Below are positions 10,613-27,402 of a DNA stretch of 64,000 nucleotides, one piece after another. This DNA is from a virus (lineage: Duplodnaviria; Caudoviricetes). The position numbers and the translations under genes were made by a program. A model generated the notes under the pieces. It did not search any database and had not been told where the DNA came from. It was given only the letters and a program-made list of their open reading frames with translations. The DNA is taken from the IMG/VR virus record IMGVR_UViG_3300022602_000026; one strand, written 5' to 3'. Position 1 is the first letter of the stretch. The number at the start of each line of letters is the position of its first letter.

Positions 10613-10621
10613 TCAAAAGCA

Positions 10622-10650: not shown

Positions 10651-10670
10651 TACACATCATAGGAGAAACC

Positions 10671-11411: not shown

Positions 11412-12409
11412 TGTCGGGTATAGCAGATGCTACACTGAAATTTTATCCTAGAGGTGCAGATGCAGGTGTTATAACACATACCTGCAATGCTCCGCATAGG
11501 GTAGTTAACATTGATACCACAGGATCATGTTATGTTTGTCATTGCGAAGCATGGTTGCCTATTTCAGTGGGCAATATTTTAGACTTTACAAGTTTAGAAC
11601 AGATATGGGATAGCGAAACTGCCAAAGAATTACAACAAGATGTTGACAGTCAAAAATTTACTTATTGTGCGGTTCGACATTGTGGAGTTGTAAATTACAA
11701 TATTGACTTTGCTCACTATCAAATTGGAGTCAACATTGACGAGAGTTGCAATCTTGCTTGTCCCAGTTGTCGTAAATCAATGACCAATCACACACAAGGC
11801 GAAGTATTTGATCTAAGAAAAAGTTATGTTGATCATTTGGTAACTCTTGTAAACAACTTTGACAAGCCGTTGAAATTGATAATGAGCGGTAACGGTGATC
11901 CACTAGCCAGTTTAATAATGCGTCCCTTGGTGCTGAACTGGCAACCAAAGAGCAACCAAACTATCAAACTGTTTACCAATGGGTTGTTAATGAAGAAGTT
12001 GTTGCCCGACAGTCCGGTGTTACCTTCGATTCGAGAATTTCAAATCAGTGTCGATGCCGGCAGTCATGATGTTTATCACGATGTTAGACGTCCGGGACGA
12101 TTTGATGTACTACAAGAAAACCTGCAATGGTTATCGGAAAATAGAAAAGGGGCCAGAGTAGATTTGCAGTTTTGCCTTCAGGCCAGTAATGCCAACGATG
12201 TTGTAAACTTTGCCGACATGTGTGATCGTTACGGATTCAATGGTAATATTGTCAAATTGGACAATTGGCATACATTTGACGACTTTGATCAGCGCGATGT
12301 AGTTGATAATAAAACACATCCGTTACATACAACAGCAATGCAACAACTAAAATTGGTTAAAGATCGCCGAAGCATCTGCATTAATTCATACCTATTGGAT
12401 TTAATATGA
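11411..12409 (+). CDS. Radical SAM protein with N-terminal Cys-rich (SPASM/twitch-like) domain
   Basis: CNLACPSC; GNGDPL; LFTNG; N-terminal C...CYVCHC...C..C. Confidence 0.85.
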   Translation: MSGIADATLKFYPRGADAGVITHTCNAPHRVVNIDTTGSCYVCHCEAWLPISVGNILDFTSLEQIWDSETAKELQQDVDSQKFTYCAVRHCGVVNYNIDFAHYQIGVNIDESCNLACPSCRKSMTNHTQGEVFDLRKSYVDHLVTLVNNFDKPLKLIMSGNGDPLASLIMRPLVLNWQPKSNQTIKLFTNGLLMKKLLPDSPVLPSIREFQISVDAGSHDVYHDVRRPGRFDVLQENLQWLSENRKGARVDLQFCLQASNANDVVNFADMCDRYGFNGNIVKLDNWHTFDDFDQRDVVDNKTHPLHTTAMQQLKLVKDRRSICINSYLLDLI

Positions 12410-13044
12410 ACTGGTTAGACCATTACCAACACAAAGGACATGTATTTGGCGAATGCATGAGTCATCAAGACAGTGAGTTAATGTATGTATATATTCCCAA
12501 AAATGCCAGCTCGTGGACCAAGCCCAACTTATTAGATTGGAAATGGGAGAATTACAATTATCACAGGGACAATTTGTATCACAAAACTGCTATAATAGTG
12601 TTACGTGATCCTGTAGATCGTTGGGTATCGGGTATTGCTGAATATATGTATCTTTACCATAAACACTTTCGACCAAATGCATCAATGCCAGTTGCCGTAC
12701 TGGATTTAATATTTGATAAAATAAGTTTTGACGATCACACCGAACGACAAATATATTTTATCGAAGGACTTGATCTAAATAAGTGTATATTTTTTAAATT
12801 TGAACATGACTATAGACACAAATTTAGCCATTTTCTTTTTACACAAAATATGCCAAATACTTATGCCAACTACGAGTTTCAACATGTCAGTGAACAAAAT
12901 CTCGAGCGGCGAAGATGGAAACAATTTATTCAGCACCAATTAGAAAATTCTAAATATATGTTTCAATTAAAACAATATTTCAAAGCCGACTACGAATTAA
13001 TTAATCAAGTAAAATTTTATGACCCAGGACAACCTAACACTTAA
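12406..13044 (+). CDS. Sulfotransferase family protein
   Basis: YVYIPKNASSW (5'-PSB-like) and VLRDPVDRWVSG (3'-PB-like) motifs. Confidence 0.75.
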   Translation: MNWLDHYQHKGHVFGECMSHQDSELMYVYIPKNASSWTKPNLLDWKWENYNYHRDNLYHKTAIIVLRDPVDRWVSGIAEYMYLYHKHFRPNASMPVAVLDLIFDKISFDDHTERQIYFIEGLDLNKCIFFKFEHDYRHKFSHFLFTQNMPNTYANYEFQHVSEQNLERRRWKQFIQHQLENSKYMFQLKQYFKADYELINQVKFYDPGQPNT

Positions 13045-14593
13045 ACAACGAGACTACGCAGTATTTTTACCGGCCATCAGCGGGTTTTATGCTACATTTA
13101 TTGGACGACAACGCACAGAACAGTATGTAGATCCTGCACGTTTTCCGCAGGGCTTAACTGATATGGAGCAACTTAATTGGCTTAACAGTCAACAGGCATT
13201 GTTTCCGTATAAATGGAGTTTGCATTCGGGCGGACATGCCAACTTGGATTTGACCAAGTTTGTCAGCAGTGAGGAAATGATACGTACACGTGAAGCGGGT
13301 ACTGTAATGATCGGAGACTCAGGCGGATTCCAAATTGCCAAGGGCTTGTGGGAAGGCGACTGGAAAGCCAATTCAGGATGTGCAGATGCACAAGGCAAAC
13401 GTGAAGCAGTGCTTAAATGGCTCGACGGCATTGCCGACTATGGCATGGGATTGGATATTCCCACTTGGGTAGTGCGTGACAAAAATGCCAGTGCCAAATG
13501 CAAAATTACCAAGCACCAAGAAGCAGTTGATGCCACAAGATTCAATAACGAATACTTTATTGCAAATCGCAAAGGCGTAAAAAATGGTGGTGCCAGGTTC
13601 TTGAATGTGTTACAAGGAGCAACACATAAAGATGCCGAAGAGTGGTATCAGACCATGAAAGACTATTGTGATCCTGCACGGTATCCCGACAAGCATTTTG
13701 ATGGTTGGGGCATGGGTGGACAAAACATGTGTGATGTACATCTTATATTGCATAGATTAATTACCATGAAGTATGATAATTTATTGCAAGAAGGCGTACA
13801 TGATTGGATGCACTTTTTAGGCACAAGCAAATTAGAATGGGCAGTATTGCTTACAGTTATTCAACGTAATGTTCGCAAATATATCAATCCCAAATTTACT
13901 ATCTCTTTTGATTGTGCAAGTCCGTTCCTAGCAACTGCCAATGGACAAGTATACTACGAAAACTCATTTCCATTAAATGGCAAATGGAGTTACCAAATGA
14001 AGAGTTGTGTCGACGACAAGAAGTATGCCACAGACACACGTAAATTCAGTACGGCATTAAAACAAGACTTTCCAAAAGAATTTGGTACGTTTGAAGACAG
14101 TCCAGTTAGTGATATGTTACAGATGAAAGATATCTGCATATACCGGCCCGGAGATCTAAACAAGAACGGCAAAGAAGGTCGAACCAGTTGGGACAGTTTT
14201 AGTTATGCATTGTTAATGGGGCATAATGTTTGGATGCATTTGACAGCAGTACAAGAAGCCAACAGACGTTTTGATGCGGGCGAGTATCCCGAAATGATGC
14301 GTACTAGTGTCACTGGCGAACGTTTTGAAGACATTGTAGAAAGTATATTTGCAGCGCCTACAAAAGAAGCCAGCATGGAAATTATTGAAAAGTACGATAG
14401 ATACTGGACCGAAATCATTGGCGGACGTGGGTTTACTGGCAAGAAACAACGTAATGCAATGACAACAACCAGCAACACCAATGTTTATGAATTAGAAGTA
14501 GATCTTTCTAAACCCAAACTAAGCAAGGCCGAAGCTAAGGCCAAAAAAGCAGCAAAGACACCAAAAATCAACACAGCAATCTTTGAGGAGTAA
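13019..14593 (+). CDS. TGT-fold transglycosylase, DpdA-like (7-deazaguanine insertion into DNA)
   Basis: IGDSGGFQI, MGLDIP, NVLQG, HFLG, SFDCAS and GHN TGT motifs; folE, queD and queE in the same region. Confidence 0.85.
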   Translation: MTQDNLTLKQRDYAVFLPAISGFYATFIGRQRTEQYVDPARFPQGLTDMEQLNWLNSQQALFPYKWSLHSGGHANLDLTKFVSSEEMIRTREAGTVMIGDSGGFQIAKGLWEGDWKANSGCADAQGKREAVLKWLDGIADYGMGLDIPTWVVRDKNASAKCKITKHQEAVDATRFNNEYFIANRKGVKNGGARFLNVLQGATHKDAEEWYQTMKDYCDPARYPDKHFDGWGMGGQNMCDVHLILHRLITMKYDNLLQEGVHDWMHFLGTSKLEWAVLLTVIQRNVRKYINPKFTISFDCASPFLATANGQVYYENSFPLNGKWSYQMKSCVDDKKYATDTRKFSTALKQDFPKEFGTFEDSPVSDMLQMKDICIYRPGDLNKNGKEGRTSWDSFSYALLMGHNVWMHLTAVQEANRRFDAGEYPEMMRTSVTGERFEDIVESIFAAPTKEASMEIIEKYDRYWTEIIGGRGFTGKKQRNAMTTTSNTNVYELEVDLSKPKLSKAEAKAKKAAKTPKINTAIFEE

Positions 14594-14595
14594 GT

Positions 14596-14775
14596 ATGGA
14601 TCGGTTAACCGAATTACAAAAGAGACATGCCACATTGGACAAACGTATAGACGCGATGAAGAAGACCGGACTTTATGGCGATACTGTTTTGGGAGAAATG
14701 AAGAAAGAAAGGTTGCATTTGCGTGATGAAATTGCTATACTAGAACAACAACAAACACATGCGGACAAAGAATGA
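14596..14775 (+). CDS. 59-aa DUF465/YdcH-like coiled-coil protein (not in the ORF track)
   Basis: Translated by hand: MDRLTELQKRHATLDKRIDAM...MKKERLHLRDEI; fills the gap with an overlapping stop/start. Confidence 0.65.
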   Translation: MDRLTELQKRHATLDKRIDAMKKTGLYGDTVLGEMKKERLHLRDEIAILEQQQTHADKE

Positions 14776-15281
14776 ACAGACAAGGGCACGAAACTGCTAG
14801 TTTCTTTTTTGGCAAGGAAGTAGAACATACTCCGGCACTGGGACTGGATACATTATTTGTAGTTGGAGTTCAAAGCACCGACGCAATTGCAAATGCATTG
14901 TCTGGAACTAGTCGACAAATACAACATATTTTCTTTGGTGCGAATCACAGTTTTGATCCGCAAACTCCCGAAGAATGGGACGCCTGGGAAAATATGATCA
15001 CATTCTTTTTGGCTCGAGACTATTGGTGCAGTTTGGATATTCCCATCGGCGCAGTTGAACCGTTCAACGATGGCGGATTAAACGATTACAACAATTTTAT
15101 TCCGCAGATAAGAATCCCAATTCCTTATATTAAATTATGGAATTATAATACCATGCTTAAAATCGATGACAAGGATTTTGCAGCAACCAATCCTGGTGTG
15201 TGGACACATAGTTTACATAACCTAAAAGACCGCAACGTATTCACAGATTGGTCCGAATACAAAAATGATCAAGTATTATGA
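14772..15281 (+). CDS. Hypothetical protein
   Basis: 169-aa ORF coupled to both neighbours. Confidence 0.7.
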   Translation: MNRQGHETASFFFGKEVEHTPALGLDTLFVVGVQSTDAIANALSGTSRQIQHIFFGANHSFDPQTPEEWDAWENMITFFLARDYWCSLDIPIGAVEPFNDGGLNDYNNFIPQIRIPIPYIKLWNYNTMLKIDDKDFAATNPGVWTHSLHNLKDRNVFTDWSEYKNDQVL

Positions 15282-15862
15282 TATTACCAACAGAACGAAT
15301 TATAGTCAGCTTAATTAGAAATTTAATTATTGGACGACAACTGCCCACTAATCAACACGGCGAAGCAGGACGTGCTGCCGAAGACTTGTTAGAAAGCATT
15401 GGAGTTCCTATTAATCGAGGGCCAGGTTGCGACATACAAGAATTTGATTGGGAAGTCAAAACTCGTAACGACAGTGCTACCAGTGCACAAACTATTGCCA
15501 CTATACATCCTAGAGATGTTGCTGCTTACCCGTATAAGCAATCACCTATTTACACAAAGTTTAGAAAACAACTTAGAATCACAACATCCACACAGAATAC
15601 CATTGATAATACTATCATTGCAGTTGATTTAATTGATTTTGATCAACCGCATGTGCAGGATCTAATAGAAGCAGCATACGAACATGGCCGACGACAGATC
15701 ATTGCCAATCCCGATATTGGCTACACACAGTACTTGGGCTATTATGGATACTTTGAACAAACAAAACAAAGTTCCAAGAACTATGATTTTAGACTCAGCG
15801 ACCAAGACATGGATGCATTGATTGCATCTGCAACTTCAACATTTGGAACTTTATTTTCATGA
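15278..15862 (+). CDS. Putative PD-(D/E)XK restriction-endonuclease-like protein (MvaI/BcnI/MutH-like)
   Basis: GEAGRAAEDLL...N.G.GCD....WEVKT...S.QT pattern. Confidence 0.55.
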   Translation: MILPTERIIVSLIRNLIIGRQLPTNQHGEAGRAAEDLLESIGVPINRGPGCDIQEFDWEVKTRNDSATSAQTIATIHPRDVAAYPYKQSPIYTKFRKQLRITTSTQNTIDNTIIAVDLIDFDQPHVQDLIEAAYEHGRRQIIANPDIGYTQYLGYYGYFEQTKQSSKNYDFRLSDQDMDALIASATSTFGTLFS

Positions 15863-16302
15863 ACCAAGAACAAAGAGAAACTGTAGAACGAATTAAAACA
15901 GCCGCGGTGCGTACAATTTTTGTAACGTTTCAAAAGGAAGGCATTCACTGCTATCCTGCGGCCGCAACCGACCCACAACTAGCAACAGGAGATGAATATG
16001 ATGTATCGTTTTTGGGCACTCCTCATCGTCATATATTCCACTTTAGGGTGGCAATTGATGTATTCCACAATGACCGAGATATTGAGTTTATTCAATTCAA
16101 GAGATGGTTGGAAAACCTATATAAAGATGCTATACTAGCATTAGACTACAAGAGTTGCGAGATGATTGCAGATGACTTGTACATACAAATTGCCGCACGT
16201 TATCCTAACCGTAACGTCACAATTGAAGTATCCGAGGACGGCGAAAACGGATGCGTCATCAACTACAACCTCACCCGTCCAAGTCAATCCATAGTAATTT
16301 AA
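15859..16302 (+). CDS. QueD-like T-fold paralog (DpdL-like)
   Basis: LGTPHRHIF (LxxxHRHxF), DIEF, SCEMIA and IEVSED T-fold motifs; distinct from the queD at 23078. Confidence 0.7.
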   Translation: MNQEQRETVERIKTAAVRTIFVTFQKEGIHCYPAAATDPQLATGDEYDVSFLGTPHRHIFHFRVAIDVFHNDRDIEFIQFKRWLENLYKDAILALDYKSCEMIADDLYIQIAARYPNRNVTIEVSEDGENGCVINYNLTRPSQSIVI

Positions 16303-16312
16303 GGAAAAACAA

Positions 16313-16579
16313 ATGGCAGAAGCCTGGTTAAAAAAATATCTTCGTATGAAACCCGAAGTAACAAACTTGCTTGACGATCTCGAAGGATATCTAGAGTTTT
16401 GTAAACGGCAAGGCTACGTATATGATGAAAATCATTTATACAACGAGAAGACTCCATGGGGAGAAATGCAACGTGTCAAAGCCGGCAAGCATCCCAAAGA
16501 TAATTGGAGTCCACATCCCAAAGAACGTAGAGACTTCCGTCCACGTGACACAAACACAAATTGGAAATATCGTGACTAA
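16313..16579 (+). CDS. Hypothetical protein
   Basis: 88-aa ORF with AAGGA RBS. Confidence 0.65.
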   Translation: MAEAWLKKYLRMKPEVTNLLDDLEGYLEFCKRQGYVYDENHLYNEKTPWGEMQRVKAGKHPKDNWSPHPKERRDFRPRDTNTNWKYRD

Positions 16580-16940
16580 TCCCTTTAAAGACCAATCTAA
16601 ATTTATGCGAGCCTGCGACCAAAGCGTGGGCACGTACAATCTAGATCAGTTTACTATGTATGTAAACTTAATCTCAGAAGAAGCCGGTGAACTAGGACAA
16701 GCACTAGCCGATGCCAATGATGTTGAGGTACTGGATGCATTAATAGATATTCTAGTAGTCACTATTGGTGCTGCACACAGTATGGGTGCTGATGTTGAGG
16801 GTGCTTGGAAAGAAGTAATGAGCACTAACTTTGCCAAGATTGGCGAAGATGGCAAAGTACGCAAACGTGAAGACGGTAAAGTACTCAAACCCTTAGGTTG
16901 GAAGGCTCCCGAACTTGAACCATTTTTAAAGGCCAAATAA
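16572..16940 (+). CDS. MazG-like/PRA-PH all-alpha NTP pyrophosphohydrolase
   Basis: LISEEAGEL, EVLDALIDILVV, SxNxAK, DGKVLKP; probable GTG start at 16572. Confidence 0.8.
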   Translation: MTNPFKDQSKFMRACDQSVGTYNLDQFTMYVNLISEEAGELGQALADANDVEVLDALIDILVVTIGAAHSMGADVEGAWKEVMSTNFAKIGEDGKVRKREDGKVLKPLGWKAPELEPFLKAK

Positions 16941-16941
16941 T

Positions 16942-18147
16942 ATGCGTAAGTTATGGTACATGGGCCTAGAGCCCTACAAAGCAAGATACACTCTACAACT
17001 GCAAGACTGGAACGAAGCAGTATTCAAGCGTAGAGGTATCAATTATGAAATAGTCACAGGCGAAACATTAAGCAATGATCAAGCCATTGTTACTGGACAA
17101 GTGTTAGACGCACACGGACGTACTTACTTTGGTATGAGTCAGTTGATGAATTTGATTCGACGATTAAAAGCAGGAGATGTAACAAATGAAGACGTCATTT
17201 ACTTTGAAGACATGTTCCAGCCCGGTATCGAAAGTTTGCCATATATTTTTGACCAAATTGCCCCTGATTTTCGGCCCCGTGTTGCTGTGCGTTGTCTTGC
17301 TCAAAGTATTGATCCTGACGATTTCGTACATGTATGGGGCATGTCTAAGTGGATGGGCTTGTACGAGAAAATGGTGGACTCGTTCGCAGACCTCGTCCTG
17401 GCCTCAAATGAAGAAATGGTAATGCACATGAAGATTGCAGGCTGGGAAGCCCCCTTGTATAATATTAGTGGATTAGCATTTGGCAAGGAGGAAGTACGTG
17501 CACGAGTACCTGGTGAGCTAAAGCCGTTTAAAGAACGTGCACTACGTGTGGGCTTTGCAGCACGTTGGGATCAAGAAAAGCAACCAGACTTTTACATGGA
17601 CTTTATTGAAGAATGGAATCGACGTTATCCACATCTAGGCGTAGAGTTTTGTGTGTTTAGTGGTGCTAAACTAAAAAGCAACAACGACAGTTACATGAAT
17701 CGTACACGTGACATGCAGGCACGTGGATTGTTGACATTGCACGAGGACTTAGAGAAAAATGATTATTATGCTTTACTTAATGATACTAGGGTGCTATTTA
17801 ATTGTGCTCTTCAAGATTGGGTGTCCAACACTGTCAGTGAAGCAGATACTCTCGGATGTAATGTTCTATATCCTGCTTATAGGAGTTTCCCTGAGACCTT
17901 TGCTAACGATCATACAAGATTGTATGTGCCTTGGAGCATAGATGATGCTATCAACAAATTGTATCCATTGTTAAATGATCCAAGTCCTAACACGGGTAAG
18001 ATCTCTGATTGGACTGATGGCACTATTGATCGCATTGTTGATATCTTGGAAGGTACCAGCAACAACAGACACAAAAAATGGGAACACAACAAGTGGTCTC
18101 GTAACAGTGTTGACTATCGTAAATACACGCACGAAAGCAAGTATTGA
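16942..18147 (+). CDS. GT-B fold glycosyltransferase
   Basis: VGFAARWDQEKQP, YYALL, QDWVSNTVSEA, LYPAYRSFPE, resembling a GT-B nucleotide-sugar-binding domain. Confidence 0.7.
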   Translation: MRKLWYMGLEPYKARYTLQLQDWNEAVFKRRGINYEIVTGETLSNDQAIVTGQVLDAHGRTYFGMSQLMNLIRRLKAGDVTNEDVIYFEDMFQPGIESLPYIFDQIAPDFRPRVAVRCLAQSIDPDDFVHVWGMSKWMGLYEKMVDSFADLVLASNEEMVMHMKIAGWEAPLYNISGLAFGKEEVRARVPGELKPFKERALRVGFAARWDQEKQPDFYMDFIEEWNRRYPHLGVEFCVFSGAKLKSNNDSYMNRTRDMQARGLLTLHEDLEKNDYYALLNDTRVLFNCALQDWVSNTVSEADTLGCNVLYPAYRSFPETFANDHTRLYVPWSIDDAINKLYPLLNDPSPNTGKISDWTDGTIDRIVDILEGTSNNRHKKWEHNKWSRNSVDYRKYTHESKY

Positions 18148-18845
18148 TGAAGACTTTGTTGTCGGGATGTTCGTTAAGTGATTACTGTGGATGGAATGAA
18201 ATTGGTAATCACAGTGACGAACGGTGCTGGTACAATATTGTTGCAAACCGTTACAATCTTGATCTTACTAATCTTAGCTATGGCGGACATAGTAATCGCG
18301 AGATCTTGCATAAAATTGCAACCAATATATTGTTAGACGATTACGAACTTGTAATTGTACAACTGACCAGTACCAACCGACATTGGTTTTATCGCTACGA
18401 TAATCCCGAAGAGTTTTGTATTCTAAACGGGGCCAACATAGAAAACGCCAAAAGCCAAAGCGAACAAGATGCCTTTAATGTTTTTAGATTTGAGTTTAAT
18501 AACGTCTATGCCGAATTAGAACGCGATTTAGTTTCGTTATTAATGATACAACACTATCTTGAATCAAGATCTATTCCTTTGGTATTAGTAGACATGATGG
18601 GTGCCGGAGCAACAATGAATTCGTTTCGAATCAATCCAGCAAAACACAGTACTCATTGCAGTCCTGAATATTTGAAAAAATTATCTGCACTGTCTAGTAA
18701 ATTAAACCTAAATAATTCTGTTGGATTTGACGGAGGAATACTGATGTTACAAAATGATTTTGCTGATGATCTTGCACACCCAGGTGCGAAAACAAACATA
18801 AAATTTGCCGAATTAATTGGCGACATTATCAATAAATTAAAATGA
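18144..18845 (+). CDS. SGNH/GDSL-like protein
   Basis: GCS block I, GGHSN block II, DLAHP block V. Confidence 0.55.
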   Translation: MMKTLLSGCSLSDYCGWNEIGNHSDERCWYNIVANRYNLDLTNLSYGGHSNREILHKIATNILLDDYELVIVQLTSTNRHWFYRYDNPEEFCILNGANIENAKSQSEQDAFNVFRFEFNNVYAELERDLVSLLMIQHYLESRSIPLVLVDMMGAGATMNSFRINPAKHSTHCSPEYLKKLSALSSKLNLNNSVGFDGGILMLQNDFADDLAHPGAKTNIKFAELIGDIINKLK

Positions 18846-19825
18846 TTAGAAAAATTATAGTAACCGGAGGTTGTGGTTATATTGGTAGTCATGTGGCTCG
18901 TGCATTCAAACAACGTGGCGATACTGTATACATTATTGATCAAGTACAACGAGATCATACATTACAAAATATGGATGGTTGGGTTATAAATGACTTTGCC
19001 AGCGATGCGGCCTTGAGTTTTATTCGCATGAACGAGCCTGATGTTGTTGTGCATTGTGCTGGCACTAGCTTAGTAGGACCCAGCATGCGAGATCCTGGAG
19101 AATACTACAACAATAACATAGCAAAAACTATTCAATTGCTTAATGTTGTCAAGGATATCGCCAAAAAACCTGCCATTATGTTTTCTAGTAGTGCCAGTGT
19201 ATACGGTGAGCCCGATCGACTGCCTTTAGTAGAAGATGATCCCGTAAAGCCTATTAGCCCATATGGTAATACAAAGGCCATGACTGAAAGTATACTTCGT
19301 GACTATTGGGGTGCGTATGCACTACAGAGCATGTGCTTTAGATACTTCAATGCCGCTGGTGCTGAACCCATCAACTTTGATCTAGGACAAGAACCCGGCG
19401 CTACACATATTGTGGCACGATTGTTAGAAGCCAAACTTGCAGGCACTGCATTCGTTTTAAACGGCATTGATTTTGGCACCGACGATCATACTGCGGTGCG
19501 TGACTATGTACATGTGTGGGATATTGCACGAGCACATGTGCTAGGTGCAAGTTACATGTTGGACGACTATCCGCAAATGGGTGCACACGTTTACAATCTC
19601 AGCACAGGTCGTGGCACAAGCAATTTGGAAATCATTAACCATGTTACTGCCCGTTACGGCCGGATGGAACAAATAGCCTATGGTCCAAGACGACATGGCG
19701 ATCCTGCACAGTTATATGCTGATGCCAGCAAAGCACGAAGACAATTGAGTTGGACTCCATTGTTTAGTGACTTGGAAACAATCGTTGATAGTGCTTATAG
19801 GTGGTATACAAAAGATGGCGTTTGA
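18842..19825 (+). CDS. galE: UDP-glucose 4-epimerase
   Basis: VTGGCGYIGSH, FSSSASVYG, YGNTK, RYFNAAGA, RDYVHV. Confidence 0.92.
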   Translation: MIRKIIVTGGCGYIGSHVARAFKQRGDTVYIIDQVQRDHTLQNMDGWVINDFASDAALSFIRMNEPDVVVHCAGTSLVGPSMRDPGEYYNNNIAKTIQLLNVVKDIAKKPAIMFSSSASVYGEPDRLPLVEDDPVKPISPYGNTKAMTESILRDYWGAYALQSMCFRYFNAAGAEPINFDLGQEPGATHIVARLLEAKLAGTAFVLNGIDFGTDDHTAVRDYVHVWDIARAHVLGASYMLDDYPQMGAHVYNLSTGRGTSNLEIINHVTARYGRMEQIAYGPRRHGDPAQLYADASKARRQLSWTPLFSDLETIVDSAYRWYTKDGV

Positions 19826-20411
19826 TAAATTATTTGAGTTTGAATCTGCATTAGCCAAATACACCGGAGCACCTTATGTGGTGTTAACTGATGGTTGTAC
19901 ACATGCTCTAGAACTGTGCTTTAGACATGACCGTATTACCGCTACTACTTTAACTCCGTATACGTATCTTAGTATCCCCATGATGTTGCGGCAACTCAAG
20001 ATCAATTTTGAGTTTTATCCCGACACATTACCACATAGACAACAATGGGTTGGTGAATACAAGTTTGAGGCCACTCGTATTTGGGATAGTGCTAGATTAC
20101 TCAAACCCAATATGTATCAAGCAGGGCAGGCGCAATGTGTAAGTTTTGGACATGGAAAGCCTTTACAACTAGGTCGAGGTGGTGCTATACTAACAGATGA
20201 TGTTGAATTATATGAATGGGCCAGTCTTGCACGTAGTGATGGTAGAGATCTTAGAATCTCCCCGTGGGAACAACAAGAATATTTTACACAAGGTTATCAC
20301 TACTGTCCAACATTGGAACTATGCGAACAAGGTCTAAATAAATTATCAACCGCAGACACTGAACCTAAATACTATCAATATCCAGACTTAAGGAAAATAA
20401 ATGTACGATAA
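19815..20411 (+). CDS. Short DegT/DnrJ/EryC1/StrS PLP-dependent aminotransferase-like protein
   Basis: FESALAKYTG, CTHALEL, WDSA, SFGHGK...GRGGAILTDD. Confidence 0.75.
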   Translation: MAFDKLFEFESALAKYTGAPYVVLTDGCTHALELCFRHDRITATTLTPYTYLSIPMMLRQLKINFEFYPDTLPHRQQWVGEYKFEATRIWDSARLLKPNMYQAGQAQCVSFGHGKPLQLGRGGAILTDDVELYEWASLARSDGRDLRISPWEQQEYFTQGYHYCPTLELCEQGLNKLSTADTEPKYYQYPDLRKINVR

Positions 20412-21168
20412 AGCACACAAAGATTTTAAAGAACAAGAAACTGCCCTAGATGCAATGGCTGGAGACGGCGGTTATAGCGAAGGCACTATGCACGGTTATT
20501 TAGGTGCCGTAATGAGACGTAACGGCAAACGCTTTTGGGCCGGCGATAATATTAGTGAGTATGTAAAAGAGGAAGATATTCCTCGACTAATCGACGAAGC
20601 AACCGAGGCATTTGAACGAGTGTTGGACTGTTTGCTGATTGATCGAGAAAACGATCCTAATAGCAAAGGTACTGCAAGACGTCTTGCTAAAATGTATTTC
20701 AACGAAATTATGGAGGGCAGATATGTTCCAGGACCCGACGCAACCAGTTTCCCCAACGACAGCGAAGACAGATACGAAGGTATGTTGGTGGTACGAAGTG
20801 AGCTCCGCTCTATGTGCAGTCATCATCATCAGCCCGTTACTGGTGTCGCTTACATTGGCATCATCGCCGCACAAAAACTTATTGGTCTTAGCAAGTACAC
20901 TCGTATTGCTCAGTGGTGCGCTCGTCGCGGCACTCTCCAGGAAGAGTTGTGTAACGATATTGCTCGGGAAATAGAACGTGCTACAGGTGCTGAAAACTTG
21001 GGTGTTTATATCCAAGCAACACATGGATGCTGTGAGAATCGAGGTATTATGGCACATAGTTCATTAACACAAACTACAGTATTAAAAGGCAGTTTCAAGG
21101 ACGATGCTGGGGTAAAGAAAGAATTCTTTGATAATATCAAAATGCAACAAGAGTTCGCTCCCCGCTGA
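20401..21168 (+). CDS. folE: GTP cyclohydrolase I
   Basis: TARRLAKMY, SMCSHHHQP, IGLSKYTRIA, LQEEL, HGCC..RG. Confidence 0.95.
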   Translation: MYDKAHKDFKEQETALDAMAGDGGYSEGTMHGYLGAVMRRNGKRFWAGDNISEYVKEEDIPRLIDEATEAFERVLDCLLIDRENDPNSKGTARRLAKMYFNEIMEGRYVPGPDATSFPNDSEDRYEGMLVVRSELRSMCSHHHQPVTGVAYIGIIAAQKLIGLSKYTRIAQWCARRGTLQEELCNDIAREIERATGAENLGVYIQATHGCCENRGIMAHSSLTQTTVLKGSFKDDAGVKKEFFDNIKMQQEFAPR

Positions 21169-21169
21169 T

Positions 21170-21198
21170 TTGACACCAAATGACTAAAGTAGTATAAT
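21170..21198 (+). promoter_or_regulatory. Consensus sigma70 promoter, AATG-spacer class
   Basis: TTGACA-ccaAATGactaaagtag (17 bp)-TATAAT. Confidence 0.9.
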
Positions 21199-21227
21199 TG
21201 TGGTATTGTAAAACTACAGGAGCTCCT

Positions 21228-22661
21228 GTGAAATATATAGCATCAATTCTGTGTACTTTAGTATTAACCGCTTGCGGGGGTGGGGGCGGAGGAGTTGCTT
21301 CGATTCCGGTACCGCCATCATCGCCCCCTCCAGTGGCTCCGCCAAGCAATACCATGTTGTCGGCAGAGAATAATTCAGTTACTGTTACAGATATAGTAGA
21401 CTACCCCACTGCAGGCAATTATGATTTTTCCAGTGTTAACTATGGATTTGGTCGATTTGGCAGTACCACTGCTACTTGCTTTGTGGCGCAGACATTTGCT
21501 AGATTGAACGGGGTAAGTTCTTCGGCTATTCCCGATGCTCCACTATATGTTGGATGTGTGCAAGGCGACGGATCTGTTAAAGAAGTTAGCCAACAATTAT
21601 TTGGTGCACAATTATACGTCAACGGCAACTATCCCTTGGTTGCAGACTTTAACGGTGACGGCATTGATGACTTGTTTTTATACGATGCTTATGATGGCAA
21701 CAGTCCTGCAGGTTTTGAAGTTGCACTGATCAGCAACGCCAACGGAACCTATACTCAAAATAGATATACCATGACCGACCCTGGTGGTTGGGCCATCGGC
21801 AGTGATCAAAATGCCGCAACCGATATCAATCACGATGGATGTTTAGATGTATTGAATGTGGGTGGTAAGTCAATGTTGCAGGTCAAATCGGGCACAACCT
21901 GTACAGGTGCATTTACCGAACAGTATTATACTGGCTCGATAGCACAATATGGTAGTGCAGTCTGCGCCGGCGACTTTGCCAATCTCGGATATGATCAGTA
22001 TGTGTTTGCCGATGCCAATAATGCAAATTTGGTTGTTCCCAATAATATACTCACCATTGACCCTACAACTTTTGCAATTACTTCGGTAACTGCATTGCCA
22101 ATGCCATATTGGAATGTGCTTAATAATGCAACAACAGCCAATCCAGCGGCACATAACTTTGCCTGTAGGACCGCAGATATAAACAACGATGGACATCCCG
22201 ATATCTTGATTTTTACAAGACCTATGCCGGCATTTGCTACAGGTGGTGGGTGGAGCAGTCAAAGTTATGTTCAAATTTATTTGAATAACGGCACTGGCGG
22301 GTTCACTGACATTAGCGCAACAGCATTGCCGGGATATAATACTAACACAATGGGATCGTATAGTCCCAGGATAATTGACATCAATGGCGATGGCTATTTG
22401 GATATTGTGCTAGAGGGAACTACATTTAGTAATGCTCCAGGCAATCAAGTTTGGATCAACAACAAGAACAATACATTTACATCAGTATTCACTAACGAGT
22501 TGACCAACTTGTATGCGTCAGTTCCCAGTACCGCATCGGGCATGATCCCCAGTATGTTACCGATTCAAGTTAATAATGCATGGAATTATATTATACAAGT
22601 TCAAGATTCTAACAATCACTATCATATTGAAGTTGCCAATACTCAATATGTTTTTAAATAG
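21228..22661 (+). CDS. Lipoprotein with FG-GAP/VCBS beta-propeller repeats
   Basis: Signal peptide and LTAC lipobox; repeats ADFNGDGIDDL, DINHDGCLDV, ADINNDGHPDI, DINGDGYLDI; GTG start after CAGGAG. Confidence 0.85.
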   Translation: MKYIASILCTLVLTACGGGGGGVASIPVPPSSPPPVAPPSNTMLSAENNSVTVTDIVDYPTAGNYDFSSVNYGFGRFGSTTATCFVAQTFARLNGVSSSAIPDAPLYVGCVQGDGSVKEVSQQLFGAQLYVNGNYPLVADFNGDGIDDLFLYDAYDGNSPAGFEVALISNANGTYTQNRYTMTDPGGWAIGSDQNAATDINHDGCLDVLNVGGKSMLQVKSGTTCTGAFTEQYYTGSIAQYGSAVCAGDFANLGYDQYVFADANNANLVVPNNILTIDPTTFAITSVTALPMPYWNVLNNATTANPAAHNFACRTADINNDGHPDILIFTRPMPAFATGGGWSSQSYVQIYLNNGTGGFTDISATALPGYNTNTMGSYSPRIIDINGDGYLDIVLEGTTFSNAPGNQVWINNKNNTFTSVFTNELTNLYASVPSTASGMIPSMLPIQVNNAWNYIIQVQDSNNHYHIEVANTQYVFK

Positions 22662-22669
22662 GAATAAAA

Positions 22670-23002
22670 ATGATACCATTACCACCAGGATGTACTGTGT
22701 CCTATCATATATGGATAGATGTAGATGCTATCACAGATGAAATGTGTGAATGGTTTAGCATGATTGGCGGCACTGTGACCGAAAAGGCTGAAACCTTTAC
22801 TGGTAGATCTTATAGCTTAAAGGTCGTAAAACAAGTGCAATATGGACGATCTAAACCCAGTTACTATAGACAAGACGGCACTGGCTATGTTAAAATAAAC
22901 TTTCACGGTAGCGATGCTTCAACTGCAAGTGTGTTCCTACTTAAATTTATGGACAATGTAGTGGCTCATAATATGAAACAAGAATTTGATTTGAGTAAAT
23001 AA
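22670..23002 (+). CDS. Hypothetical protein
   Basis: 110-aa ORF with AGGA RBS. Confidence 0.65.
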   Translation: MIPLPPGCTVSYHIWIDVDAITDEMCEWFSMIGGTVTEKAETFTGRSYSLKVVKQVQYGRSKPSYYRQDGTGYVKINFHGSDASTASVFLLKFMDNVVAHNMKQEFDLSK

Positions 23003-23004
23003 TC

Positions 23005-23070
23005 TATAGCGGTCTTGGCTTCATCCCGCTTTATAAACTCTGCCAGCCTATGCTACAATTAACATAGGAG
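23005..23070 (+). ncRNA. Candidate structured 5' leader of queD (pseudoknot plus RBS-sequestering hairpin)
   Basis: AGCGG/CCGCT, TTGGC/GCCAG and CCTATG/CATAGG pairings. Confidence 0.45.
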
Positions 23071-23077
23071 AAACAGC

Positions 23078-23611
23078 ATGTCAGACGACTTTAACGCAGT
23101 ATTCAAACGAGAATACAAACCAGTAACTTACCGATACACCAGTACAAAAGAATACCACGATGCATTTCCGTGCGCTTACCGACAATGGCGAGCCGACAGT
23201 CATTGTAATTTGATACATGGTTATAGTTTCAGTATGAAGTTTTACTTTGGTACTGATGACTTGGATGTGCGTAACTGGGCCGCTGACTACGGTGGCTTAA
23301 AAGAGCTTAAACGAACACTAGAAGATCAATTTGATCATACGCTATTGGTGGCCGAAGACGATCCCGAACTGGAAATATACCGATTACTAGAATCAAAGAA
23401 CATGGCCAAACTGACTATCCTACCAAGACTGGGGTGTGAAGGTTTAGCAGACATGCTTTACAAGTATGTTAATGGCGTTTACATTCCTGATATGTGGGGA
23501 CCAGGTGAAGCAGATAGACTTTGGTGCTATCGAGTTGAAGTAAGAGAAACACAAAGCAACATGGCCTATCGAGAAGGACATAGAGAAGACGGCGAGGACT
23601 TGTTTGCTTAA
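23078..23611 (+). CDS. queD: 6-carboxy-5,6,7,8-tetrahydropterin synthase
   Basis: HCNLIHGYS (C-x3-HGH-like), DYGGLK, FDHTLL, EVRET. Confidence 0.88.
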   Translation: MSDDFNAVFKREYKPVTYRYTSTKEYHDAFPCAYRQWRADSHCNLIHGYSFSMKFYFGTDDLDVRNWAADYGGLKELKRTLEDQFDHTLLVAEDDPELEIYRLLESKNMAKLTILPRLGCEGLADMLYKYVNGVYIPDMWGPGEADRLWCYRVEVRETQSNMAYREGHREDGEDLFA

Positions 23612-23814
23612 TGGATATTAACATCATGTATCTAGCCATTGTGTTCTTTTGCCAAGGAACACAATGTGGTGCAATGTCGGTCGAGACACCGTACGCAAAT
23701 CAAGCCGAATGTCGATCAGATGTGGCCCAAGCCGAAGAAAAGTTTCGACAAGATCCCTCGATAACCATTGTCGAGGGAAGATGTGCAAGGTTTAATAACG
23801 GGCTAAAATCATAA
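23611..23814 (+). CDS. Small hypothetical protein with hydrophobic N-terminus
   Basis: 67 aa with four Cys; translationally coupled to queD. Confidence 0.55.
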   Translation: MDINIMYLAIVFFCQGTQCGAMSVETPYANQAECRSDVAQAEEKFRQDPSITIVEGRCARFNNGLKS

Positions 23815-23832
23815 TTTATCAAGAAGATTCAT

Positions 23833-24693
23833 TTGCTTAACACTGATATTCAATGGATACATGTAGAGGCGTCAAGTAAATGTAATGCTTGGTGCCCGGC
23901 TTGCCCAAGGAATAAAAACGGGTTTGGTATCGCTGACAACTTGATCGAGGAAGATTTGTCTATTGCTAGACTTGTATCGGTACTAGATCAATTGCCCAAT
24001 TTGCACGGAATACAATTTTGTGGTAATTTTGGTGATCCTGTGATAGCCAACAACATTTTAGATTTGATATCTGTGGCAATGAAATATGCTAAAAAGATAC
24101 AAATACACACAAATGGTAGTTTGCGATCCACGGCGTGGTGGCGAGAATTAGCAACTGTGTTACAGAATGTTGATCACGATGTTTGGTTTGGTATAGATGG
24201 ATTGGCCGGCGTACACGAGATATATCGACAGGGCACAGATTATGACAAAGTTATTGACAATGCTACCAGTTTTATTGATGCCGGAGGTGTTGCAACTTGG
24301 CAATTTATTCCGTATGCACACAACGAACATCAAATACGCGACTGCTTAAAGACCAGTCAACGATTGGGATTTCGTCAATTCAAATTGGTAAAGTCGTTTA
24401 GAGATATAACCGAAGCAAGACACTACCGCACCGGAGATGGTTTTAAATTACTTGCCCCAAAAGAAATCAAACAAATTATACAAATGCCAACATCAAAAAC
24501 CAAAGTTGATCCGGTAGACTGTATGCATTTGACTCAACCTGGAATTTATCTAGGAGCAAATGGTAAATTAAGTTACTGTTGTTATCATCATAATCTACAA
24601 TCGGCAGAAAAACAATTTGATTCTTTGCAAGAATTGTTGTATAATAACATCAACTTGGATCATAAACAATGTATATTTTCATGTGGGAAATAA
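23833..24693 (+). CDS. Radical SAM protein
   Basis: CNAWCPAC, CGNFGDP, HTNG, FGIDG; C-terminal Cys cluster. Confidence 0.85.
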   Translation: MLNTDIQWIHVEASSKCNAWCPACPRNKNGFGIADNLIEEDLSIARLVSVLDQLPNLHGIQFCGNFGDPVIANNILDLISVAMKYAKKIQIHTNGSLRSTAWWRELATVLQNVDHDVWFGIDGLAGVHEIYRQGTDYDKVIDNATSFIDAGGVATWQFIPYAHNEHQIRDCLKTSQRLGFRQFKLVKSFRDITEARHYRTGDGFKLLAPKEIKQIIQMPTSKTKVDPVDCMHLTQPGIYLGANGKLSYCCYHHNLQSAEKQFDSLQELLYNNINLDHKQCIFSCGK

Positions 24694-24694
24694 T

Positions 24695-24967
24695 ATGAAC
24701 GAAAAAATAGAAGAAGCACTGGGCATATTGCAAGAGGAATGTGCCGAAGTAATACAAGATGTCAGCAAGTGTAGACGTTTTGGCGTGGACAATGTATACT
24801 TAAACGGTGAAGGCACGCAACGAGAAAATCTTGCAAAAGAAGTTGGCGATGTACTGGCCATGATTGATATTCTAATTGAACAAGGCCTATTCACACAGAG
24901 TGAACTAGATGTTGCCAAATCAAACAAAAAAATTAAACTTAAGAAGTGGTCAAAAATATATGAGTAA
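24695..24967 (+). CDS. MazG-like pyrophosphohydrolase
   Basis: LQEECAEVIQ...K and KEVGDVLA motifs. Confidence 0.75.
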   Translation: MNEKIEEALGILQEECAEVIQDVSKCRRFGVDNVYLNGEGTQRENLAKEVGDVLAMIDILIEQGLFTQSELDVAKSNKKIKLKKWSKIYE

Positions 24968-25808
24968 ATTAAAAGTAGCAGAATTATTTTATAGTGTACA
25001 GGGCGAAGGACGTTACATGGGTGTTCCTTCTGTGTTCTTACGTGTGTTTGGATGTAACTTTAAATGTGCCGGCTTTGGCATGCCTCGAGGAGAAACTAGT
25101 AATGAAGTTGAAGATATTGCTCAAGTGGTCCACATGTTTGACGATTATAAACAATTGCCTTTGGTATCTACTGGATGTGACAGTTATGCTAGTTGGGATC
25201 CTAGGTTTAAGCATCTTAGTCCCATGCTTGATACTGACGCAATTGCCAATCAGATTATAGACATACTACCTCACAAGGGGTGGGAAGACGAGCATCTTGT
25301 AATCACAGGCGGTGAACCTTTGCTGGGTTGGCAAAGACAGTATCCCGACTTGTTGGATAATGTCAACATGGCAGGACTAAAAGAAATTACATTTGAAACA
25401 AATGGTACACAAAAGTTAACCGATGACTTCAAGAAGTATTTGTTTAAATGGCGTCAACAAAATAAGAATAGAGAAATAACTTTCAGTGTGAGTGCTAAAC
25501 TGCCCGCAAGTGGCGAGACATGGGCGGAAGCAATACAACCAAAGACTGTATGCGAATATGAATGGTTTGGTACTGCTTATTTGAAGTTTGTTGTTGCAAC
25601 CGAACAAGACATATTAGATGCAGAACGTGCAGTCAAAGAATATCGTGATGCTGGCTTTGTAGGACACGTGTACTTAATGCCCGTAGGTGGTGTTGAAAGT
25701 GTTTATACGTTAAATGCAAAGAACGTAGCACTAGCAGCAATGCAACGTGGTTGGCGTTACAGTGATCGACTACAAGTGCCACTATTTAAAAATGAGTGGG
25801 GTACTTAA
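24960..25808 (+). CDS. queE: 7-carboxy-7-deazaguanine synthase
   Basis: ELFYSVQGEG, VFLR..GCNFKC, CDS, VITGGEP, FETNGT, SAK, RLQ. Confidence 0.9.
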   Translation: MSKLKVAELFYSVQGEGRYMGVPSVFLRVFGCNFKCAGFGMPRGETSNEVEDIAQVVHMFDDYKQLPLVSTGCDSYASWDPRFKHLSPMLDTDAIANQIIDILPHKGWEDEHLVITGGEPLLGWQRQYPDLLDNVNMAGLKEITFETNGTQKLTDDFKKYLFKWRQQNKNREITFSVSAKLPASGETWAEAIQPKTVCEYEWFGTAYLKFVVATEQDILDAERAVKEYRDAGFVGHVYLMPVGGVESVYTLNAKNVALAAMQRGWRYSDRLQVPLFKNEWGT

Positions 25809-26039
25809 TTGCCAATGGATATACTTAGCGATCTAAATCACTTTTACTACCGGGCACAGTGGAGGCAAAAGTTTGCACTGTGGCCTAGGCGTTGTGCACG
25901 ATCGGGTCGCCGTATATTTTTTGAACGAGCCTACCAAGGCACCGCTATGTACACTGGCCCTGGTGAACCTGTGTACGAACATCATTGGCACCGTAGAGAC
26001 GAACATTTATTATGGTTGCTGACACGACCCGTTAAATAA
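25809..26039 (+). CDS. Hypothetical protein
   Basis: 76-aa Trp/Arg-rich ORF in operon. Confidence 0.55.
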   Translation: MPMDILSDLNHFYYRAQWRQKFALWPRRCARSGRRIFFERAYQGTAMYTGPGEPVYEHHWHRRDEHLLWLLTRPVK

Positions 26040-26053
26040 AATAAAGGACCAAC

Positions 26054-26455
26054 ATGGCAACAAGAAAACCCAAAGCAGAAACAGAAGTTAAAAAAGCTCC
26101 GGCTCGAAAGACTGCGAAGAAACCCGCAGTAGAAAAGACTGCAAAAGATATTGCAACAGAAAAAGGCGAGCCCTGGGTCAGTGTTATTAGCGTTGAATTA
26201 GATCCAGAGAACATTGGCAATGGTGCATTTGAATTAGATTGGAATGACAAGTTTATTACCAATTTGGTAAGGCAAGGATACCAAAGCAAGCCGGGCGAAG
26301 AAGAAAGCGTCATAGTCGACCGTTGGTTTCAAACTGTGTGCAAAAATATTGCCATGGAAAGTTACGAGCAATGGGAAGCAAATCAACCAGTAGATGCACG
26401 TCCTAGAATAATTGATCGACGTGACGTTGGCGGTGGACGTACCGAGGCAAGTTAA
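26054..26455 (+). CDS. Hypothetical protein with Lys/Ala-rich N-terminus
   Basis: 133 aa; AAGGA RBS. Confidence 0.7.
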   Translation: MATRKPKAETEVKKAPARKTAKKPAVEKTAKDIATEKGEPWVSVISVELDPENIGNGAFELDWNDKFITNLVRQGYQSKPGEEESVIVDRWFQTVCKNIAMESYEQWEANQPVDARPRIIDRRDVGGGRTEAS

Positions 26456-26695
26456 ATGGAAGGTTTAAAACCACCACGCACACTGAAGTTTTATCAATTG
26501 ACCAAACTGTCAATCAGTGGTGGTCTTTATATAACTCCGGCTGGCATTGGCACCGGCACTATCGGGAGCGGTATATTTCGAACCCTGGATGAAGCCGAAC
26601 AAAATCGCACAATGGAAATACTCAGAGACAAAGACGGCACAGGCACTTATCATGTGTTTGAATTGGAATTCCCTAACCCGGCGTATCAAGAATGA
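26456..26695 (+). CDS. Hypothetical protein
   Basis: 79-aa coupled ORF. Confidence 0.6.
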   Translation: MEGLKPPRTLKFYQLTKLSISGGLYITPAGIGTGTIGSGIFRTLDEAEQNRTMEILRDKDGTGTYHVFELEFPNPAYQE

Positions 26696-27402
26696 TATTA
26701 TATGTAAACGGTGACAGCCATAGTGCTGGTCATGGCACTAAAAATCCTGCAGGCATGGCCTATAATGATTCAAAATATTTTGAACTAGGAGATGCTCCGC
26801 ATCCAGACAATTTGCCCTATAGTTATGGCTACTTGGCAGCGCAGGATCTAGGACTAGATCTAGTTTGCCAAGCCGAAAGCGGCAGCAGCGTTGAGCGTAG
26901 CATACGAATGACTAAAAAGTTTGTATACCAAACAAATCAAAATGTTTTTGTATTAATTGGTTTTCCGTCCATAGAACGAGAAGAATGGAATTATAAAGGT
27001 CAATGGTTTCAAATTAATGCCAGTGGGCATAACATATTACCCGACGGGTTACAAACACGATACAAAGAATGGATTGCTAAATACGATAACAAGGTATGGC
27101 ATCGACGTGCACTTTATTTAAACGATGTGATACGGGATTTTCACACTTGGTTAGACACGCGAAATATTCCGCATTTGTTTTTTAATACCGAACAAAGTTT
27201 ATCGGCAAATACAACACATTACCAGTTTGACAATAGTTATTTGGGTGCATACGATAACACACTTATCTACAGTCATTGGCTTCGAGCACAAGGACATGTA
27301 CCCGACGAATGGAGTCATTTTGGAGTCGACGGGCATCGAGCTTGGGCAGACTTTTTAAAACCATTTATAAATGATAATATACGTAAACGGCGACAGTCAT
27401 AG
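26692..27402 (+). CDS. SGNH/GDSL-like protein (tandem paralog 1)
   Basis: MILYVNGDSHS, ESGSS, REEW, HFGVDGH. Confidence 0.6.
   Translation: MILYVNGDSHSAGHGTKNPAGMAYNDSKYFELGDAPHPDNLPYSYGYLAAQDLGLDLVCQAESGSSVERSIRMTKKFVYQTNQNVFVLIGFPSIEREEWNYKGQWFQINASGHNILPDGLQTRYKEWIAKYDNKVWHRRALYLNDVIRDFHTWLDTRNIPHLFFNTEQSLSANTTHYQFDNSYLGAYDNTLIYSHWLRAQGHVPDEWSHFGVDGHRAWADFLKPFINDNIRKRRQS

Follow-up and report, generated by a model that had tools for sequence, protein, structure and literature searches.

A probable DpdL-type 7-deazaguanine DNA-modification module in the replication gene block of a tailed phage

Introduction

7-Deazaguanines are among the main means by which phage DNA evades restriction enzymes and further host defences. 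The least understood branch of these pathways is the one defined by DpdL, as its key enzyme is unproven and its heterologous reconstitution failed. This branch was proposed by Cui, Hutinet et al. (Nucleic Acids Research 2023; PMC10516641), who detected 2′-deoxy-7-deazaguanosine (dDG; m/z 267.109) in the DNA of Cellulophaga phage phiST and presented DpdL as a candidate decarboxylase of 7-carboxy-7-deazaguanine (CDG), in which an LxxxHRHxF motif replaces the CxxxHGH motif of QueD. According to the same work, dpdL occurs in phages that encode DpdA, FolE, QueD, and QueE, and that lack QueC. A stretch of 64,000 nucleotides from IMG/VR virus record IMGVR_UViG_3300022602_000026 (Duplodnaviria; Caudoviricetes), hereafter the window, holds a gene cluster with this core at positions 10671–25808. 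The cluster is interpreted here, with a probability of about 0.6, as a DpdL-type 7-deazaguanine DNA-modification module lying inside a phage replication gene block. Its core is therefore of a known kind, namely the pathway proposed in 2023 for phiST.

Relationship to described phages

Like phiST, the window encodes FolE, QueD, QueE, a QueD paralog with the LxxxHRHxF motif, a transglycosylase of the tRNA-guanine transglycosylase (TGT) superfamily, and a MazG-type enzyme, and neither QueC nor QueF is found (for the window, within its 64 kb). In phiST, a MazG/dUTPase gene adjoins dpdL. The two systems also differ. The transglycosylase of the window has 524 residues, compared to 259 in the DpdA3 of phiST, and bears no detectable likeness to it. 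Moreover, the gene set of the window and its relatives is extended by a GT4-like glycosyltransferase (GT), the epimerase GalE, a protein of 169 residues, and a short DegT-like protein. Searches of phiST did not find the GT and 169-residue families, and the dpdL region fetched from this phage holds no GalE or DegT-like gene. The DNA of phiST was measured and found to carry dDG.

The jumbo phage PA5oct of Pseudomonas is closer in its transglycosylase. The region EST35_0316–0322 encodes a member of the same transglycosylase lineage (36% identity across 81% of the protein), and shares with the window the order DpdA, GT4-like protein, DpdL, and then QueE, as well as a clamp-like gene upstream. Unlike in the window, the motif of the PA5oct DpdL is HFH rather than HRH, and EST35_0320 is a short homolog of only the N-terminal part of GalE; no DegT-like or 169-residue homolog was detected in the fetched region. 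The DNA of PA5oct resists several restriction enzymes with G-containing sites, from which its authors infer an unnamed “modified G” (PMC12191111).

Synechococcus phage BUCT-ZZ01, Acidovorax phage ACP17, and Xanthomonas phage X1 also resemble the window, with adjacent dpdA, dpdL, and GT genes together with FolE, QueD, and QueE. The GT of BUCT-ZZ01 is 62% identical to that of the window over its full length. However, the DpdA of these three phages comes from another lineage, akin to the proteins of the Vibrio phage nt-1/VH7D type, and X1 holds two additional genes, one PAPS-reductase-like and one PIG-L-like. Cultured phages that carry both a GT and dpdL include PA5oct, ACP17, X1, BUCT-ZZ01, and Sinorhizobium phage Phosso. 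Between its QueE and QueD genes, BUCT-ZZ01 holds a small gene with the annotation xanthine-guanine phosphoribosyltransferase (L095:2093-2554), and a homolog with 27% identity is found directly upstream of QueE in PA5oct (L001:15946-16380). The products of these genes might salvage guanine set free by the exchange or form a nucleotide of the deazapurine.

The DpdL-type core of the cluster

The defining gene of the cluster is found at 15859–16302 on the plus strand, and encodes a T-fold QueD paralog of 147 residues, the proposed CDG decarboxylase. It carries the motif LGTPHRHIF (residues 52–60, nucleotide 16012), the sole motif of this kind in six-frame open reading frames (ORFs) of at least 80 residues. 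The protein matches the unnamed PHROG phrog_17812 at 3e-37, and is 60–70% identical to proteins of PA5oct, RHph_I1_18, and Phosso, 58% identical to that of ACP17, and 35–38% identical to that of phiST (CGPG_00067). When it is aligned with DpdL and QueD proteins, its motif pairs with LSLNHRHLF of phiST and LGSPHRHLF of ACP17. The original prediction, which was drawn from the sequence of the window without database searches, had pointed to a second QueD-like protein in this place and to a link between such a paralog, DpdL, and CDG decarboxylation; the gene is indeed there, and PMC10516641 proposes exactly such a paralog. On the basis of motif, alignment, and neighborhood, 15859–16302 is a clear member of the DpdL family in a DpdL genomic context. 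The family is large: a search of 1.84 billion representative proteins yielded 551 clusters at E≤1e-10.

The conservation of the cluster was followed in metagenomic relatives of the window. In IMG/VR, over 600 contigs carry a transglycosylase that is 66–76% identical to that of the window; the counts given below for loci come from 80 of these relatives' loci, and those for the downstream genes come from the 30 with at least 9 kb of downstream flank. DpdL is present in 30/30 of the latter.

The three genes that would supply CDG were also named in the original prediction, and family matches place all of them where it had put them. FolE, a GTP cyclohydrolase I (20401–21168, plus strand), matches PF01227 at 5.4e-37, is 64% identical to FolE of Phosso, and is kept in 27/30 relatives. 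The QueD-like 6-carboxytetrahydropterin (CPH4) synthase (23078–23611, plus strand) matches PF01242 with 55.6 bits and the QueD-like phrog_2389 at 9e-35. Its motif (23204) reads CNLIHGY, as in the QueD proteins of ACP17 and phiST, and not CxxxHGH. QueE, the radical-SAM CDG synthase (24960–25808, plus strand), matches phrog_2076 at 1.9e-50 and five QueE models of NCBIfam at 1e-12 to 1e-14, all of them under the curated cut-offs. Its ORF opens at 24909, although 24960 is a likelier start (MSKLKVAELF...). Numbered from 24909, the cluster cysteines are C49-x3-C53-x36-C90, the third cysteine being preceded by an insertion of some 36 residues. QueE is kept at 56–74% in 5/5 large contigs of relatives.

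No QueC, QueF, or Gat family was found by Pfam scans of 64 ORFs of the window, including every ORF of at least 130 residues, and neither the SGGxDS PP-loop motif nor the QueF motif occurs in ORFs of at least 80 residues. These scans bear out the earlier statement that queC, queF, and gat-queC are missing from the 64 kb; arcS, which was included in that statement, has no model or motif of its own among them. Five contigs of relatives (96–220 kb; 27–51% complete according to CheckV) likewise gave no QueC or QueF over the cut-off. The weak matches to the QueC model in these relatives are a NadE-like protein and another PP-loop protein, neither of which is present in the window. Hence, DpdA, FolE, QueD, and QueE without QueC are seen within the 64-kb window, as well as in the five incomplete contigs from relatives, and, as far as motifs and family models can tell, the absence of QueC and QueF is well supported for this 64-kb part of a genome of about 400 kb.

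Two genes of the cluster encode nucleotide pyrophosphohydrolases. The first, of the MazG/PRA-PH type (16572–16940, plus strand), matches PF01503 at 2.4e-9 and phrog_671 at 3e-34; its ORF was called from 16422, and the domain begins near residue 50. This gene is variable, being found in 2/30 relatives. The second, a MazG-like protein of 116 residues (24617–24967, plus strand), matches PF03819 at 1.1e-4, barely over the cut-off.

The genes from 10671 to 25808 are all co-directional on the plus strand, mostly with overlapping stop and start codons, and the cluster adjoins a family-B DNA polymerase and a sliding clamp. The clamp-like gene (10671–11411, plus strand), which marks the replication module that hosts the cluster, encodes a protein with 31% identity to the “DNA polymerase III sliding clamp beta” of Phosso and 35% identity to the product of the gene directly upstream of the PA5oct DpdA. 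It is present in 75/75 relatives with enough upstream flank. The gene order DpdA, 169-residue protein, DpdL, GT, GalE, and FolE is kept in the contigs of 27–30/30 relatives, and in the compact ones DpdA, the 169-residue protein, DpdL, a small ORF, the GT, GalE, the DegT-like protein, and FolE follow each other with overlapping ends.

A divergent lineage of DpdA-like transglycosylases

The enzyme expected to exchange the base is encoded at 13019–14593 on the plus strand, where a DpdA-like TGT had been predicted and where an ORF of 524 residues with the motif DSGGFQ and a TGT fold is found. The fold comes from an AlphaFold model built on 22 relatives. With this model, the 50 Foldseek matches listed of 145 (E≤0.001) are all tRNA-guanine transglycosylases, and the top 50 entries of a VIA search are also all TGTs, with Z scores of 12.8–14.9 across 278–312 residues. 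The motifs D100-SGGFQ, LD146IP, and SFD298C show no variation among 11 sequences of the lineage, including those of PA5oct, Phosso, and Vibrio phage 2.275.O. In a profile alignment made with hhalign, SFDCASP (D298) pairs with MFDCVMP of the E. coli Tgt, albeit with a weak overall score (E 0.0016); the latter segment is the one that we take to hold the catalytic nucleophile.

None of the models applied from Pfam, PHROG, and NCBIfam detects this lineage. Specifically, the TGT model PF01702 and the DpdA model PF23859 of Pfam are not matched by the protein of the window, and PF23859 also gave no match in the records of five relatives at E≤1. The comparison of the family profile with DpdA3 of phiST by hhalign returned a probability of 1% over 12 columns, which amounts to no detectable likeness; by this profile comparison, the enzyme of the window is not a DpdA3. 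A faint similarity to the ACP17-type DpdA was observed (E 5.7e-4). The only matches of a tblastn search with this protein were in PA5oct-like jumbo phages of Pseudomonas (36% identity), Phosso (28%), and Vibrio phage 2.275.O (31%).

The member from PA5oct adjoins DpdL and QueE, and the neighbors of that from Vibrio phage 2.275.O (L093:5905-12606) are QueF, QueC, Gat, FolE, and a YhhQ-like transporter. These neighbors tie the lineage to deazaguanine synthesis in two pathway contexts, and indicate that a single DpdA lineage serves both QueC-containing and QueC-free pathways. The transglycosylase of the Vibrio phage bears an insert of about 90 residues. In the window, residues 472–524 (14434–14593) form a Lys/Ala-rich tail, KAEAKAKKAAKTPK, and most relatives end near residue 482; this tail may be an added DNA-binding extension.

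Proposed pathway and points against it

FolE, QueD, and QueE belong to established enzyme families, so that the first steps of the pathway would be the conversion of GTP into dihydroneopterin triphosphate by FolE, followed by the formation of CPH4 by QueD and of CDG by QueE. As QueC is lacking, the pathway is expected to stop short of 7-cyano-7-deazaguanine (preQ0). DpdL would then strip the carboxyl group from CDG to yield 7-deazaguanine, following the proposal of 2023 (PMC10516641), and the TGT-fold enzyme of 13019–14593 is predicted, from its fold, motifs, and context, to swap guanine in the DNA for this base. The conserved Asp residues of the DSGGFQ and FDC motifs would be used in the exchange, and the MazG-type pyrophosphohydrolases may trim the pools of dGTP or of deazapurine nucleotides. 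A 7-deazaguanine without nitrile or aminomethyl group thus probably enters the phage DNA by base exchange, and DNA modified in this way would be protected from restriction enzymes that recognize G. From the gene content, the most likely product is dDG or a sugar-bearing derivative of it. This is in line with the original prediction, which had expected dDG or the deoxynucleoside of CDG (dCDG) rather than preQ0 or archaeosine (G+), or else a derivative not yet described, and which proves to be a reasonable reading of the genes present.

Several points weigh against this interpretation. The decarboxylase activity of DpdL is a proposal, even for the founding members of the family, and dpdL and dpdA from phiST and ACP17 yielded no dDG in E. 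coli (PMC10516641). A queC gene could lie in the remainder of the genome of about 400 kb, and the contigs of relatives are only 27–51% complete. The assignment of the transglycosylase has its own difficulties: no Pfam (E≤0.01), PHROG, or NCBIfam family matches the protein, no solved TGT structure was found by sequence with its two profiles (A1 and A5), and the model on which the fold assignment is based has a middling confidence, with a predicted local distance difference test (pLDDT) score of 67. In addition, the zinc motif of tRNA TGTs, CxCxxC...H, is unseen in the lineage, where only C373 is invariant in that part of the protein. Finally, the conservation of the GT and GalE suggests that plain dDG is perhaps not the end product.

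Co-inherited genes and a possible sugar-bearing base

Four genes of the cluster, those of the GT, GalE, the short aminotransferase-like protein, and the 169-residue protein, are inherited together with the core, and their products probably act in the deazaguanine pathway. The GT is encoded at 16942–18147 on the plus strand, and is present in 30/30 relatives. Its assignment to the GT4-like enzymes of the GT-B fold comes from profile matches of the family: 20/23 members match Glyco_trans_1_2 (best 3.7e-5) and 17/23 match Glycos_transf_1 (best 2.5e-4) at E≤1, in both cases under the curated cut-off, and the profile finds the glycosyltransferase WlaC in the PDB at 3.5e-4. The protein of the window alone scores only 0.055 against models of the Glycos_transf_1 type. 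The family appears, by these profiles, to be weakly but consistently GT1/GT4-like. Language-model look-alikes of the GT, which serve only as a lead, are GT4 clusters, those of QTMAN among them. A kinship with QTMAN found no support from the domain model QTMAN_N (PF12038), which matched nothing at E≤1 in the records of five phages that carry the GT.

The GT is closely associated with DpdL beyond the relatives of the window. The two genes adjoin each other in ACP17, PA5oct, Phosso, X1/BUDD, and BUCT-ZZ01, which represent at least five otherwise unrelated phage groups, and in Phosso the GT remains with dpdL while dpdA is 170 kb distant. Among 50,697 phage records, tblastn with the GT matched five, all of them encoding DpdL; DpdL itself matched 29. 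Searched as whole genomes, phiST, RHph_I1_18, Bakedbeans, and Ahp1 encode DpdL, and no GT of the window type was found in them; this divides the DpdL phages into a GT-bearing and a GT-free class. The sole DpdL phage whose DNA has been measured, phiST, belongs to the GT-free class.

GalE, a UDP-glucose 4-epimerase (18842–19825, plus strand), scores 295.5 bits over its full length against the TIGR01179 equivalog model, whose cut-off is 262.3, and it is present in 30/30 relatives. It is followed by the short DegT/aminotransferase-like protein of 214 residues (19767–20411, plus strand), which matches positions 162–212 of PF01041 at 8.5e-11. This is a partial fold, with local similarity to the full-length DegT of the window around GGxILTDD; it is found in 27/30 relatives, where it also has about 207 residues. 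The conserved protein of 169 residues (14772–15281, plus strand) occurs in 30/30 relatives, always between the DpdA-like gene and dpdL, and a homolog lies upstream of dpdA in ACP17. It is rich in invariant His, Asp, and Glu residues, and neither the PDB nor the AFDB gave a convincing fold match to its model (pLDDT 75). Three candidate kinships of this protein were rejected: a likeness to QueE (best VIA Z 6.7, not significant), matches to the designer protein “Cake”, which are repeat artefacts with no passing stretch, and a PIG-L-like origin, for which the comparison shows no relation. The 169-residue domain is fused to DpdL in one metagenomic protein, known from a single contig of 1.5 kb that may be an assembly error.

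Fusions of DpdL to other domains also occur. Seven DpdL protein clusters (P0029, P0049, P0063, P0104, P0117, P0120, and P0128) hold an N-terminal PIG-L/LmbE-like domain with the motifs PHVDDE and DxHPxH, although its Pfam PIG-L matches are sub-threshold (2–3e-4). The same domain is free-standing in Xanthomonas phage X1 (L090:3387-4034), two genes upstream of the GT, whereas the window shows no PIG-L-like gene. In the synthesis of mycothiol, bacillithiol, and glycosylphosphatidylinositol, GT4 enzymes are classically paired with PIG-L/LmbE deacetylases. DpdL is also seen fused to a PAPS-reductase-like domain and, in one metagenomic protein, to a dUTPase/dCTP-deaminase-like domain.

The co-inheritance of the GT and GalE makes the derivative not yet described that had been left open in the original prediction, whose text does not mention these two genes, a serious option. 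It is possible, though less likely than not, that the end product is a 7-deazaguanine bearing a hexose or hexosamine, where the GT4-like enzyme, fed by GalE, would use a GalE-balanced UDP-sugar before or after the insertion of the base by DpdA. The short aminotransferase-like and 169-residue proteins would perhaps assist in this synthesis, and the role of DpdL may then be wider than plain decarboxylation, as hinted by its PIG-L/LmbE-like fusions. The presence of the GT and GalE in one operon in all 30 relatives, the association of the GT with dpdL in unrelated phages (even in Phosso, where dpdA is remote), its restriction to DpdL-encoding phages, and the deacetylase-type domain that is fused to DpdL or free near the X1 GT all favor a sugar-bearing base. 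Furthermore, the ThyA of the window is a true thymidylate synthase, which leaves no hydroxymethyl-pyrimidine in sight as an acceptor for the GT.

There are precedents for the attachment of sugars to modified bases. In phage T4, glucosyl-hydroxymethylcytosine is made by DNA glucosyltransferases of the GT-B fold, and eukaryotic tRNA carries mannosyl- or galactosyl-queuosine, QTMAN being a GT4 enzyme. As in these systems, the window encodes a GT-B gene alongside a modified-base pathway. However, no acceptor hydroxyl is known on 7-deazaguanine, and its C7 offers no obvious hydroxyl or amine handle; neither was a sugar on a DNA deazaguanine reported in the literature searched. The weakness of the GT family matches and the sub-threshold PIG-L assignment further argue against this option, as do phiST, RHph_I1_18, Bakedbeans, and Ahp1, whose DpdL without a GT implies that DpdL does not need one. 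If confirmed, a sugar-bearing 7-deazaguanine would be a purine hypermodification not described in the literature searched.

The DpdL branch is abundant in freshwater giant phages, with the more than 600 related contigs mentioned above, and it travels with a GT in several phage lineages and also with a sugar epimerase in the freshwater group. These co-travelling genes offer a concrete possible reason why dpdA and dpdL failed when introduced alone into E. coli.

Alternative routes and targets

Two other interpretations are less likely than base exchange in DNA. According to the first, which appears unlikely, the modified base is incorporated as a deoxynucleotide at replication, with MazG clearing dGTP and the TGT-like protein acting as a helper or in salvage. 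The two MazG-like genes of the cluster, like the one beside dpdL in phiST, would fit this model, as would the fusion of one metagenomic DpdL to a dUTPase/dCTP-deaminase-like domain, the small phosphoribosyltransferase-like genes of BUCT-ZZ01 and PA5oct, and the position of the cluster beside the family-B polymerase and the clamp. Contrary to this, the transglycosylase has intact catalytic motifs in 80/80 relatives' loci, the window yielded no phosphoribosyltransferase-like gene, and DpdA has been argued to be present in every deazaguanine phage and to insert the base after replication (PMC10516641).

The second, that the TGT-fold enzyme acts on phage or host tRNA and the virion DNA is unmodified, agrees with the fold matches, all of which are tRNA-guanine transglycosylases, but is highly improbable given that the gene lies within the replication module, with the clamp on one side and dpdL on the other, that PA5oct, which carries the nearest cultured homolog, has restriction-resistant DNA (PMC12191111), that the CxCxxC zinc subdomain motif of tRNA TGTs is not seen, and that the Pfam scans of the window showed no QueA, QueG, or QueF for queuosine.

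Variable genes, regulation, and distribution of the locus

The conserved genes of the DpdL-type module are interspersed with variable ones. The genes at 11411, 15278, 18144, 21198, and 23833 are rare inserts, each found in 1 to 13/80 loci, and the sulfotransferase-like gene at 12406 is commoner, occurring in 36/80. The insert of 194 residues at 15278–15862 (plus strand; 3/80 loci; no family match) is wedged between the 169-residue gene and dpdL, and resembles a mobile insert. A small ORF of 88 residues (16313–16579, plus strand), also without a family match, is conserved in 28/30 relatives with enough flank.

Regarding regulatory elements, a sigma-70-like site with 11/12 consensus positions is found at 10622–10650, ahead of the clamp-like gene. 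Promoter-like and terminator-like sites are no commoner than in shuffled sequence. The 29 nt that separate folE from the FG-GAP gene (21170–21198, plus strand) are taken up entirely by a perfect sigma-70 consensus (12/12; TTGACA, 17 nt, TATAAT). The FG-GAP gene at 21198 is found in 1/80 relatives, and this rarity, together with the consensus site, suggests that it is a moron with its own promoter. An Rfam scan of 10000–27000 returned no family at the gathering score, preQ1 riboswitches included.

No near DNA match to the window is found among the 50,697 phage records. Near-identical DNA occurs in freshwater metagenomes from many studies between 2012 and 2017, sharing up to 0.65 of the sampled words, and none of the RNA runs is listed as containing the stretch.

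Other features of the window

Besides QueE, the window encodes five radical-SAM proteins, all with the CxxxCxxC motif: 11411–12409, 23833–24693, and 47644–48723 on the plus strand, and 60867–62264 and 62839–63993 on the minus strand. In the protein at 11411, a SPASM domain precedes the radical-SAM core. The two located in the deazaguanine region are rare among relatives, with that of 11411 in 8/80 and that of 23833 in 13/80 loci.

A second block of sugar and nucleotide genes extends over 42234–51881 on the plus strand. It comprises a dihydrofolate reductase, three unannotated ORFs, a weakly GT9-like protein, the true ThyA, a short member of the short-chain dehydrogenase/reductase (SDR) family, a radical-SAM enzyme, a further unannotated ORF, a 4,6-dehydratase-like SDR, and a PseC-like aminotransferase. 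The block may make an amino-dideoxy sugar.

The gene at 1403–4909 (plus strand) encodes a protein of 1168 residues, which combines a zinc-binding domain of dCMP/cytidine deaminases with GNAT acetyltransferase domains and two DUFs, an architecture that is unusual for a phage nucleotide enzyme. On the minus strand, a NodU/CmcH-type carbamoyltransferase with both of its Pfam domains (1e-38 and 4e-48) is encoded at 56052–57545, beside DUF6071 and methyltransferase genes.

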